Shown: piece by piece, positions 10,715-20,241 of the stretch
How positions within the stretch are numbered: position 1 is the stretch's first letter
How the letters are laid out: the number at the start of each line of letters is the position of its first letter
NCBI GenBank assembly: GCA_964535955.1
Contig: CAZHVK010000002.1
Span: 134,122 to 175,619 of the forward strand
Length of the DNA: 41,498 bases
Origin: an uncultured Methanosarcinales archaeon
GTDB taxonomy: Archaea > Nanobdellota > Nanobdellia > Woesearchaeales > CAXGTL01
Direction of reading: 5' to 3'
The notes under the pieces: model-generated
What the model was told of the DNA's origin: nothing
Seen by the model: the letters and a program-made list of their open reading frames with translations, nothing else
Databases searched by the model: none
Position numbers and translations under genes: made by a program

Positions 10715-11275
10715 ATGAGTAAACACAAATATTCATCAAAAACTGAAAATGAACACACTGCAAAAGCAGTTGGTAAAGATGTTGCTATCTCTTTCAAACA
10801 TGCAGCAATGGTTTGTAACCAATTAAGAAATAAGAATCTGTTAAAATCAAAAGAATTACTAAAAAGAGTTATTGAGAAAAAACAAGCAATACCTTACACA
10901 AGATTCAACTTTGATCGTGGACACAAAAAAAAGATTGGGCCTGGAAGATATCCAATAAAGACATCAAAAGAGATATTAAGAATACTTGAAAATGTTGAAT
11001 CAAATGCACAATTCAAAGGACTAAACACATCATTATTAAAAATAATACACATTAATGCTCACAAAGCATCTACACCTAAAAGATATGGAAGAAAGGGTGG
11101 TGTAAACTCAAAAAGATCCCATGTTGAAGTAATTGTTGAAGAAACTCCAGAAACAAAAACAAAAGAAGAGATCTCAGAAAACAAATCTAAAGAAAAAGAG
11201 AAAAAAAGCTCAGAGCAAAAAAAAACTGAACAAAAGGAAAAGCAAGTAGAAAATCAAAAGGTGGAAAGTAAATGA
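10715..11275 (+). CDS. rpl22: 50S ribosomal protein uL22 with KE-rich tail
   Basis: ISFKHA, GPGRYPIK, NAQFKGL, SHVEVIV. Confidence 0.97.
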   Translation: MSKHKYSSKTENEHTAKAVGKDVAISFKHAAMVCNQLRNKNLLKSKELLKRVIEKKQAIPYTRFNFDRGHKKKIGPGRYPIKTSKEILRILENVESNAQFKGLNTSLLKIIHINAHKASTPKRYGRKGGVNSKRSHVEVIVEETPETKTKEEISENKSKEKEKKSSEQKKTEQKEKQVENQKVESK

Positions 11276-12066
11276 TAGAAAGAAAAATACTAGCTGAAAA
11301 GATGAAGGAATTTGAAATAGAAGAATTAGTTGGTAAAAAGACTAGAGGAGTAGGTCATTCAAAAACAAAAGTTCAGAGAACTCCATTAGGTGAGAAAATA
11401 GTAATCCATGCATCACGTCCGGGATTGGTTGTTGGTAGAAAAGGAGCAAACATAATTTCAATGACAAAAATATTAAAGAAAAAATTCAGTCTTAACAATC
11501 CTCAAATAGAAATTAGTGAGGTCATTAATCCAAACATAGATGCAAATATTATAGCAGAGAGAATTGCAACATCACTTGAAAGGTTTGGTGCTTCAAGATT
11601 TAAAGGAATAGGACATAAAGCAATGGCAGATGTAATGAAATCAGGAGCAATGGGAGTAGAAATAATCATTGGTGGTCGTGGAGTACCTGGTGAAAGAGCA
11701 AAATCATGGAGATTTTACAGAGGATATTTAAAAAAATGTGGAGATGTTGCAGTAAATGAAGTTAAGAAAGCATTTGCAACTGCTAACTTAAAAACAGGAA
11801 CAATAGGAATCAAAGTAAGTATAATGGATAAAGATGTAAAGCTTCCTGACAAAATAATTACTACTGAAGAAAAAGAAGAAATTCAAAGACAAGCAATGAA
11901 AGAAGAAAAAAGAAAAGAAGAAGAAGAGAAAGATAAAAAAGAAGAACAAGACAAAAAAAATGAAACAAAGGAAGAAAAAACAAAGAAAGTCTCAGAGCAA
12001 AGTTCTGATGATACTTCCAAAGTAGTTTCTGACAAAAATAAAAAAGAAACAAAAACAGGTAAATAA
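11272..12066 (+). CDS. rps3: 30S ribosomal protein uS3 with KE-rich tail
   Basis: KH motif RPGLVVGRKG, GAMGVEI, GYLKKCG, GTIGIKV. Confidence 0.97.
   Translation: MIERKILAEKMKEFEIEELVGKKTRGVGHSKTKVQRTPLGEKIVIHASRPGLVVGRKGANIISMTKILKKKFSLNNPQIEISEVINPNIDANIIAERIATSLERFGASRFKGIGHKAMADVMKSGAMGVEIIIGGRGVPGERAKSWRFYRGYLKKCGDVAVNEVKKAFATANLKTGTIGIKVSIMDKDVKLPDKIITTEEKEEIQRQAMKEEKRKEEEEKDKKEEQDKKNETKEEKTKKVSEQSSDDTSKVVSDKNKKETKTGK
11991..12036 (+). repeat. in-frame palindromic element in the uS3 tail (SEQSSDDTSKVVSDK)
   Basis: 38/46 nt ungapped identity to 19935-19980 in uL15; hairpin TCAGAGC-aaa-GTTCTGA. Confidence 0.8.
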
Positions 12067-19656: not shown

Positions 19657-20241
19657 ATGGTTATCAATAAAAGAAAAAAAAACTCCAGACAACGTGGGTC
19701 AAAAACTCATGGTTGGGGGAGTATGAAGAAGCATAGAGGAGCTGGAAGTAGAGGAGGACGTGGAAGAGCAGGGACTGGTAAGAGATGTGATACTAAAAAA
19801 ACAAGTTATTGGCATGAAAAATACTTTGGAAAACAAGGTCTGAAATCCCGAAAAAAAAGAGAAAAAACAATTAACACATTTACTATTGAATTAAAATTAA
19901 ACAAATGGTTAAAAGATAAAAAAGTAAAAAAAATCTCAGAGCAAGGCTCTGATAATACTCAGAAACAAGTTTCTGACAAACAAGATACTTATATTATTGA
20001 CTTAAACAAACTTGGTTATGACAAACTTCTATGTAAAAATATTGTGAAATTCAAATTGGACATTACTGTAAAGAAATGTTCAAAACAAGCAAAAGACAAA
20101 ATAGAAAAAGCTGGTGGCAAAGTAACTTTAATTGAACCTAAAAAAAAAGAGAAAAAGGTAGAAGAGAAAAAAGATAAAACAGAAAAAAGCAAAAAACAAA
20201 CAAAACAAGAAGTAACAAAAGAAAAAGAATCTAAAAAATAA
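19657..20241 (+). CDS. rpl15: 50S ribosomal protein uL15 (with internal ~15-aa insertion)
   Basis: RGSKTHGWG, RGAGSRGGRG, GYDKLL, KIEKAGG. Confidence 0.97.
   Translation: MVINKRKKNSRQRGSKTHGWGSMKKHRGAGSRGGRGRAGTGKRCDTKKTSYWHEKYFGKQGLKSRKKREKTINTFTIELKLNKWLKDKKVKKISEQGSDNTQKQVSDKQDTYIIDLNKLGYDKLLCKNIVKFKLDITVKKCSKQAKDKIEKAGGKVTLIEPKKKEKKVEEKKDKTEKSKKQTKQEVTKEKESKK
19935..19980 (+). repeat. in-frame twin-hairpin palindromic element in uL15 (SEQGSDNTQKQVSDK)
   Basis: TCAGAGC-aag-GCTCTGA taatac TCAGAAAC-aa-GTTTCTGA; 38/46 identity with the uS3 copy. Confidence 0.82.

Follow-up and report, generated by a model that had tools for sequence, protein, structure and literature searches.

A 45-nucleotide double-hairpin element, in frame in the uL15 gene of a Woesearchaeota-type archaeon, is probably a copy of a miniature dispersed DNA repeat

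How does a segment built of two DNA hairpins come to lie, in frame, inside the gene of a core ribosomal protein? This question is raised by the uL15 gene in a stretch of 41,498 nucleotides (nt), hereafter the window, which is part of contig C2 of the genome, designated G000, of a tiny marine archaeon (assembly GCA_964535955.1, contig CAZHVK010000002.1, positions 134,122 to 175,619 of the forward strand). At positions 19933-19977 of the window (forward strand) the gene contains 45 nt, i.e. 15 codons (residues 93-107) encoding ISEQGSDNTQKQVSD. In our judgement they probably represent one copy of a double-hairpin DNA repeat, miniature and non-autonomous, which spread by being copied to new sites of the genome.

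The host gene (19657-20241, forward strand, 194 residues) was recognized as uL15 by Pfam (PF00828, E 2.1e-11) and by the uL15 entry 6skf_BO of the PDB (E 2.2e-15); it sits within a long ribosomal-protein operon and is the single uL15 match in G000, no second copy having been found in that genome. Codon alignment and homologue alignments delimited the insertion, which stands in the protein context ...KKVKK-ISEQGSDNTQKQVSD-KQDTYIIDL..., and its ends are uncertain by a few bases because of the A-runs on both flanks. The element consists of a first hairpin at 19936-19952 (TCAGAGC/GCTCTGA, a stem of 7 base pairs (bp) and a 3-nt loop, aag), a 6-nt spacer TAATAC at 19953-19958 (TGATGC in the sister copies, TCATGM in the general family described below), and a second hairpin at 19959-19976, TCAGAAAC-aa-GTTTCTGA, which folds as a 7-bp stem with a 4-nt loop; all three lie on the forward strand, and both hairpins were delimited from the sequence together with RNA and DNA folding. 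The RNA fold of a 48-mer yielded exactly these two hairpins (-14.9 kcal/mol, z -4.04; of 200 shuffles one did as well), the DNA fold of the 45-mer was similarly distinct (-10.0 kcal/mol, z -4.52, none of 200 shuffles as good), and both hairpins remained when 30 nt of flanking sequence per side were added to the mRNA fold (z -3.78). A 41-nt core of the element, searched with up to three mismatches, was matched once in the window, where 100 shuffles gave an expectation of 0.00. An initial annotation of this DNA had described two perfect hairpins in uL15 and an insertion of about 15 residues; both descriptions were borne out, the hairpins in position and sequence as well as by the fold, and the insertion as an exact segment of 45 nt.

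That the segment is an addition to uL15 was clearly seen from the relatives. In an alignment of the G000 protein with 29 orthologues (drawn from 39 matching genomes among 41 searched, three of the same genus), 29 of 29 showed a clean 15-column gap between ...K[IV][EKQ]K and K[NQ]D.Y, and in the codon alignment with the three congeners 15 codons were missing between GAA AAA and AAG AAT. Among the best 120 of 684 database homologues of uL15, 119 had no residue in the insert columns, and the exception was the window's own 90% protein cluster, of which three of three members carried the segment and which was seen on seven contigs from several sources. The insert also fell into a gap of the alignment with the Thermococcus uL15 (6skf_BO), the loop being matched there with residues 88-94 of that chain. 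The expectation that archaeal uL15 normally has a short loop at this site was therefore upheld in 29 of 29 relatives and in all 119 other homologues, and the proposed check, an alignment of relatives in search of a clean indel of about 45 nt, returned such an indel and no relative with a loop of this kind.

The site may be compatible with the fold. In an AlphaFold model of uL15 (28 sequences, mean pLDDT 72.8) the globular domain was predicted with confidence (blocks of 97-98), and the insert formed a loop between the strands 91-93 and 111-115 with block pLDDT values of 71 and 61, that is, a low-confidence loop in an otherwise high-confidence domain, in a predicted model of the protein outside the assembled ribosome. 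As a separate observation, P0086, another Woesearchaeota-like uL15 of 48% identity, carries a related peptide, SEKRSASDDTQKQDVSVSDK, in its C-terminal tail; since the peptide is found elsewhere in that protein, uL15 was hit independently, at another position and in another lineage.

Altogether six copies of the 45-nt element were found in six different genes: five in G000 (nhmmer, E <=1e-13) and one in the congener G003, the latter recovered by a pattern search allowing up to three mismatches among 40 relatives. The strict 45-nt pattern matched only in G000 and G003 among 401 genomes of the order, and it had zero matches in collections of genome, viral and metagenome contigs, from which G000 or near records may be absent. 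Besides the internal loop of uL15, the element occupies the C-terminal tail of ribosomal protein uS3 (copy at 11989-12033, forward strand, peptide VSEQSSDDTSKVVSD; host gene at 11272-12066, forward strand, 264 residues, Pfam PF00189 and PF07650), the DP2 large subunit of the DNA polymerase PolD after ...QAGLGAWF (G000 C3:100690-100782), residues 238-253 of a 275-residue RlaP-family nucleotidyltransferase, a position near the C-terminus of a 143-residue acidic protein with no Pfam match, and, in G003, a Glu/Leu/Phe/Val dehydrogenase (glutamate dehydrogenase) ten residues past GGAKSG. Of the five copies outside uL15, four either occupy a C-terminal tail or are no more than about 40 residues away from the C-terminus, and one stands just past the GGAK motif of the dehydrogenase. 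According to their Pfam annotation the hosts share nothing in common. The uS3 copy had been pointed out in the initial annotation as a 46-nt match, and it proved to be real: 38 of 46 bases are identical to the uL15 copy, ungapped and in the same frame (VSEQSSDDTSKVVSDK); it is, however, not the sole other copy.

At the other sites the comparison with congeners gave the same picture as in uL15. The dehydrogenase gene is filled in G003, and its orthologues in G000 and G002 are without exactly these 45 nt. The PolD subunit ends with ...GLGAWFAA* or ...GLGAWFSA* in G002 and G003 and reads ...GLGAWFTK-ISKQGSDDTQRQVSD-KPTAKP* in G000, where the element together with six further codons extends the protein 21 residues beyond the Qxx[L]xxWF motif; the sequence ...QAGLGAWF resembles what we take to be a C-terminal PCNA-interacting box. 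Orthologues of the acidic protein in the congeners run directly into [SA]GKEEE* with no element. The uS3 tails of the congeners lack the motif as well, but they are too variable to be aligned, and the RlaP-like gene had no orthologue in the three congeners. Since the orthologues are empty at every comparable site, each of these sites represents a lineage-specific gain, and the gains of G000 and G003 sit in different genes. It was also observed that many ribosomal proteins of the operon between 11272 and 20241 (uS3, an eL32-like protein, uL15 and others) have long Lys/Glu-rich C-terminal tails, which vary in length and sequence among the congeners; the uS3 and acidic-protein copies are located in such tails.

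The coding strand carries every one of the six copies, and a single frame is used throughout, giving [IV]SEQ[GS]SD[DN]xQKQVSD (summarized as ISEQGSDDxQKQVSD). Of the element's six frames three are open; the one in use is the most hydrophilic of these, with a mean Kyte-Doolittle value of -1.55 versus 0.11 and -0.54. Four copies keep both hairpins perfectly; the uS3 copy has kept hairpin 1 with one G-U pair and has a decayed hairpin 2 (five of eight pairs), and in the PolD copy both hairpins are lost. When the four intact copies were compared with the consensus, the 30 stem positions were free of differences and all 11 fell among the 18 positions of loops, spacer and flanks; over all six copies 7 differences were synonymous versus 19 non-synonymous, at a chance expectation of 21% synonymous. 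Because the differences avoid the stems and are mostly non-synonymous, what the younger copies have in common is the stems rather than the peptide; older copies then decay. The G003 copy is identical at 43 of 45 positions to two G000 copies that stand at non-orthologous sites, and orthologous genes of the two genomes have identities of 0.67-0.69 at third codon positions.

The 45-mer is a coding-compatible subfamily of a repeat of about 50 nt, likewise made of two hairpins and mostly intergenic, a relationship which was traced from weak nhmmer matches of the 45-mer (E 0.002-0.1). The general form is (T)GTCA-stem-loop-stem-TGA, a 6-nt spacer NCATGN (mostly TCATGC, TCATGA or GCATGC) and TCA-stem-loop-stem-TGAC(A), with hairpins mostly of 21 or 23 nt; compared with it, the 45-mer has shorter hairpins (17 and 18 nt) and a spacer differing by one or two bases. 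The general pattern was present in six of 41 related genomes, with 25 matches in G000, 12 in G003, 4 in G001, 3 in G002, 1 in G004 and 5 in G012, and had no match in the other 35 genomes of the order, while the reversed pattern, used as control, gave none in any genome. Sixteen copies, which had been preselected for perfect 8-nt arms, showed double compensatory changes in 9 of 21 predicted pairs, and their TGTCA...TGACA ends were invariant or nearly so.

Concerning the location of these repeats, 29 copies of G000 have perfect 8-nt arms on both hairpins, and an open reading frame (ORF) of at least 70 residues runs through 17 of them. Seven of the 17 were translated: two stand inside real coding sequence confirmed by Pfam, four precede the first Met of the gene that lies downstream, and one is in a frame that does not look protein-like; the ORFs of the ten others are short, 70-148 residues. 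Two of seven being coding and the ten others short, most of the 29 are probably intergenic. In-frame members of the wider family are carried in G000 by an FtsY-like GTPase (SEKQGFSDHTQKSKISD, with another, partial copy beside it) and by a HIT-domain protein (SEAKASDHDQKSSISD), the gene of the latter running into a run of N in the assembly (C21, downstream of 2900). A relaxed pattern with the spacers TGATGM/TAATAC hit 13 loci in genome contigs, six of them in long ORFs in the same frame (among these the G003 dehydrogenase, an unannotated 616-residue ORF and Lys/Glu-rich tails), six outside ORFs and one, in a bacterium, a probable chance match. The same pattern hit 31 loci in metagenome contigs, several of which are the same DNA as the genome-contig matches; 23 had no ORF of at least 100 residues running through, and in six of the seven with a same-strand ORF the centre was read as SDDxQ. 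Related in-frame copies are thus present in other Woesearchaeota or Nanoarchaeota records. The pattern of the canonical family had no match in viral contigs, a scan of 18 family loci against Rfam 15 gave only three matches (E 0.4-0.6, far below the gathering scores), and a tRNA scan of 16 family loci found none.

We propose the following course of events. The copies would spread as DNA, probably through a single-stranded hairpin intermediate recognized by an enzyme acting in trans, by analogy with the terminal-only PATEs discussed below, to which such a spread is ascribed in Haloquadratum (PMC3119063); this enzyme is the weakest step of the mechanism. Selection would then have retained only those copies which are in frame, in the most hydrophilic open frame, and in tolerant loops or tails, and the insert of uL15 is most likely translated into a hydrophilic loop of 15 residues between two beta-strands of the globular domain. 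Several features accord with such a history: the length of the element is a multiple of three and the frame used contains no stop codon, the congeners differ in copy number and in filled sites, the ends of the element are fixed, its flanks are A-rich, and the empty orthologous uL15 sites are A-rich too, GAAAAA^AAG marking the point of insertion.

It should be emphasized that a number of observations weigh against a mobile repeat. The Pfam families PF01797 (Y1 transposase of the IS200/IS605/RAYT type) and PF07282 (TnpB) were found in none of five genomes (G000-G003 and G012), with controls positive in 6 and 8 of 14 known genomes; no multi-copy, transposase-like paralogue family was found among the 1197 ORFs of at least 120 residues in G000; and no target-site duplication was discernible at the six sites, the ends of which are ambiguous by a few bases. 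Mobility is deduced from presence and absence of the segment between species only, and translation of the 15 codons is likewise something we infer. One frame is used by all six copies though three of six are open, which could reflect selection on the peptide, and in the PolD copy 5 differences are synonymous versus 2 non-synonymous. Finally, with six copies all these numbers are small.

An alternative is that the segment is a functional, acidic, Ser-rich short linear peptide motif, for example a docking site for a kinase or another partner, which was recruited into several proteins, so that the hairpins would be a by-product of the codons of Ser-Glu ... Ser-Asp. Its centre is indeed read as SD[DHN]xQ[KR] in the six copies and in the FtsY-like, HIT-domain and other-genome members, and the PolD copy, in which the hairpins are lost, has kept the peptide with mostly synonymous changes. 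However, the congener orthologues are empty at every comparable site, so the peptide is conserved in no protein family, the host proteins share nothing, the overall ratio of 7 synonymous to 19 non-synonymous changes is no excess, and all differences in the intact copies avoid the stems. The homologous elements are moreover mostly intergenic, two of the 29 perfect-arm copies in G000 being placed in Pfam-confirmed genes and an ORF of at least 100 residues being absent at 23 of the 31 metagenome loci, and we regard a recruited peptide motif as quite unlikely.

An element acting in the RNA, either an intron-like segment that is removed or a regulatory or protein-binding double hairpin of the transcript, with a peptide that is irrelevant or never made, would agree with the conserved stems and with the persistence of both hairpins in the folded mRNA context (z -3.78); some intergenic members, standing in units of about 190 nt behind TATA-like boxes, may also be transcribed. 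Against it, six of six copies have an open frame and the element measures an exact multiple of three, the uS3 and PolD copies stay in frame despite their decayed hairpins, and no Rfam family was reached at gathering score, the three matches being far below. An archaeal intron of the bulge-helix-bulge type would have two 3-nt bulges around a 4-bp helix; two independent hairpins were found instead, with the junctions in 9-nt unpaired stretches. Since there is no bulge-helix-bulge, every copy is a multiple of three long and the decayed copies are in frame, an intron is unlikely, and a role in the RNA appears improbable on the whole. The copies might alternatively have arisen with no dedicated mobile machinery, by templated insertion or gene conversion during the repair of breaks or a switch of template at hairpins, which would agree with the missing transposase, the lack of a visible target duplication and the low-complexity, A-rich flanks. 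Such a process hardly accounts for a 45-nt unit with identical ends at six unrelated sites in two species, for a family whose tens of copies in six genomes keep one fixed architecture, or for near-identical copies of two species at non-orthologous sites, and it is considered highly unlikely. Two other structured elements were rejected on inspection: a C/D-box sRNA, since CUGA and UGAUGM are present in the in-frame copies but there is no 5' C box and UCAUGM replaces the C' box in the canonical family, and an integron attC site, since the copies are scattered, with no cassette arrays and no RYYYAAC/GTTRRRY ends.

If the 45-mer is a mobile repeat, the question is which of the known systems it resembles. 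Palindromic "selfish" elements that lie in frame are known from textbooks as an oddity of Rickettsia; these Rickettsia palindromic elements (RPEs) form ten families of about 100-150 bp, and their host is an obligate intracellular bacterium. The archaeal element is similar in being a dispersed palindromic repeat that is found in frame in unrelated, often essential genes and also outside genes, and in adding a conserved peptide segment, at sites that may in the present case be tolerated by the fold. It is dispersed with five copies in G000, one in G003 and 25 general-pattern matches in G000, and it is in frame and absent from orthologues in uL15, glutamate dehydrogenase, PolD and the acidic protein. 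Its size of 45 nt (about 50 nt in the general family) is outside the range of the RPE families proper and about a third of theirs, it consists of two small hairpins with a 6-nt spacer, and its host is a DPANN archaeon. As described in PMC10969869, RPEs are palindromic repeats fused in frame to unrelated genes. Judged by description, the likeness to RPEs is one of kind and not of sequence family; the RPE-like insertion suggested in the initial annotation was supported in that sense, being dispersed, palindromic and in frame in unrelated proteins.

Repetitive extragenic palindromic elements (REPs), as their name implies, are extragenic, and their genomes encode the RAYT enzyme. The present family shares with REPs and REPINs the short palindromic hairpins in pairs and the tens of copies across the genome, and it differs from them by its feet, (T)GTCA...TGAC(A) instead of GTAG/CGTC, by the failure to find a Y1 enzyme, and by several copies that are coding. 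REP/BIME and REPIN elements are described in PMC3733652 as mobilized by RAYT and as marked by a GTAG or CGTC tag. Similar in size are the terminal-only palindrome-associated transposable elements (PATEs) of Haloquadratum walsbyi, which in the account of PMC3119063 are 52 bp long, derive from IS200/IS605-type transposons and share their palindromes with IS605-type transposons of the same or related genomes. Like the PATEs of that account, ours is a very short archaeal element (45-50 nt versus 52 bp), with hairpins within 1-3 nt of both ends and no target duplication discernible at the six sites. It is unlike them in that no Y1 transposase or TnpB was found in the five genomes, that no longer element with the same ends was seen, and that it forms in-frame coding insertions, which PATEs are not known to do. 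The small mobile repeats (SMRs) of Haloquadratum, whose mobilization is called enigmatic in the same article, are 80-110 bp long and prefer other mobile elements as targets (PMC3119063); compared by description only, they have in common with our element the inverted termini unrelated to known transposons and the lack of a target duplication. As for miniature transposable elements bounded by inverted repeats (MITEs), terminal inverted repeats are present (TGTCA...TGACA), but no target-site duplication could be resolved and no parent insertion sequence with the same ends was seen, a multi-copy transposase being absent from the G000 search. Membership in the RPE, PATE, REP or MITE families is thus not established by these tests.

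Newly documented in this study is the coding subfamily, together with the genes that host it, the orthologous sites that are empty and the pattern of its substitutions; a literature search on archaea, DPANN or Woesearchaeota for elements that are palindromic or in frame found no description, subscription journals being largely outside its scope. Tentatively, and with more doubt than confidence, it may be suggested that DPANN archaea of the Woesearchaeota type have a transposase-less double-hairpin class of their own, which is moved by some enzyme or process that has so far had no connection with mobile DNA, colonizes essential genes in frame and so supplies universal proteins time and again with loops and tails specific to a lineage. 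The essential hosts meant here are a large-subunit and a small-subunit ribosomal protein and the replicative polymerase; the 45 nt add 15 residues to a single-copy essential ribosomal protein and extend the polymerase past its PCNA-box-like motif. If this were true, RPEs would have an archaeal counterpart at a third of their size, and insertions in universal proteins would have to be used with caution as phylogenetic markers. Essential proteins of reduced genomes would be seen to tolerate insertions, and mobile DNA, as opposed to adaptation, could account for variation in protein length. Gene callers, repeat annotators and DPANN phylogenies built on indels can be led astray by elements of this sort, and because no transposase was found, the family offers a handle on an unknown route of mobilization.

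The source genome comprises 1.49 Mb in 31 contigs with 29.7% G+C, its completeness being rated at 100% and its contamination at 1.82%. Among named uL15 homologues, the nearest in the database search carry the labels Candidatus Woesearchaeota or Nanoarchaeia. Four records of the element type in genome contigs are labelled "uncultured Methanosarcinales archaeon", and the remaining archaeal matches are Woesearchaeota, Nanoarchaeota or "archaeon"; the Methanosarcinales label may be an artefact of binning or taxonomy. In a search of sequencing runs, eight DNA runs from two studies contained the stretch, six of which are possibly its source, and no RNA run was listed.

Some members of the wider family in G000 are embedded in longer repeats. 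One unit of about 190 nt around the double hairpin occurs in five copies of about 80% identity (C8:40586-40830, C9:34255-34500 and, on the reverse strand, C9:7930-8170, C17:4130-4370 and C15:4430-4680); it has a TATA-like box, TTATATATAAAT, upstream in four of the five, complementary ends (CATCCAAAAATCC ... GGATATTTTGGATG) and no Rfam match. Perhaps it is transcribed as a structured RNA, or else it is a longer element related to ours. A second unit of about 190 nt around a double hairpin is found at C4:16450-16720, C4:25080-25350 and C2:690-960, and on the reverse strand at C1:37900-38160, C1:159350-159620 and C20:7300-7560; its start, ATGTGCATGG, and its end, CCATGCACAT, are complementary, and a TATA-like box stands upstream of some copies. 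Four family members are clustered within 3 kb at C2:110863-113650, about 20 kb before the start of the window, and two of them share 174 nt of flanking sequence at 100% identity.
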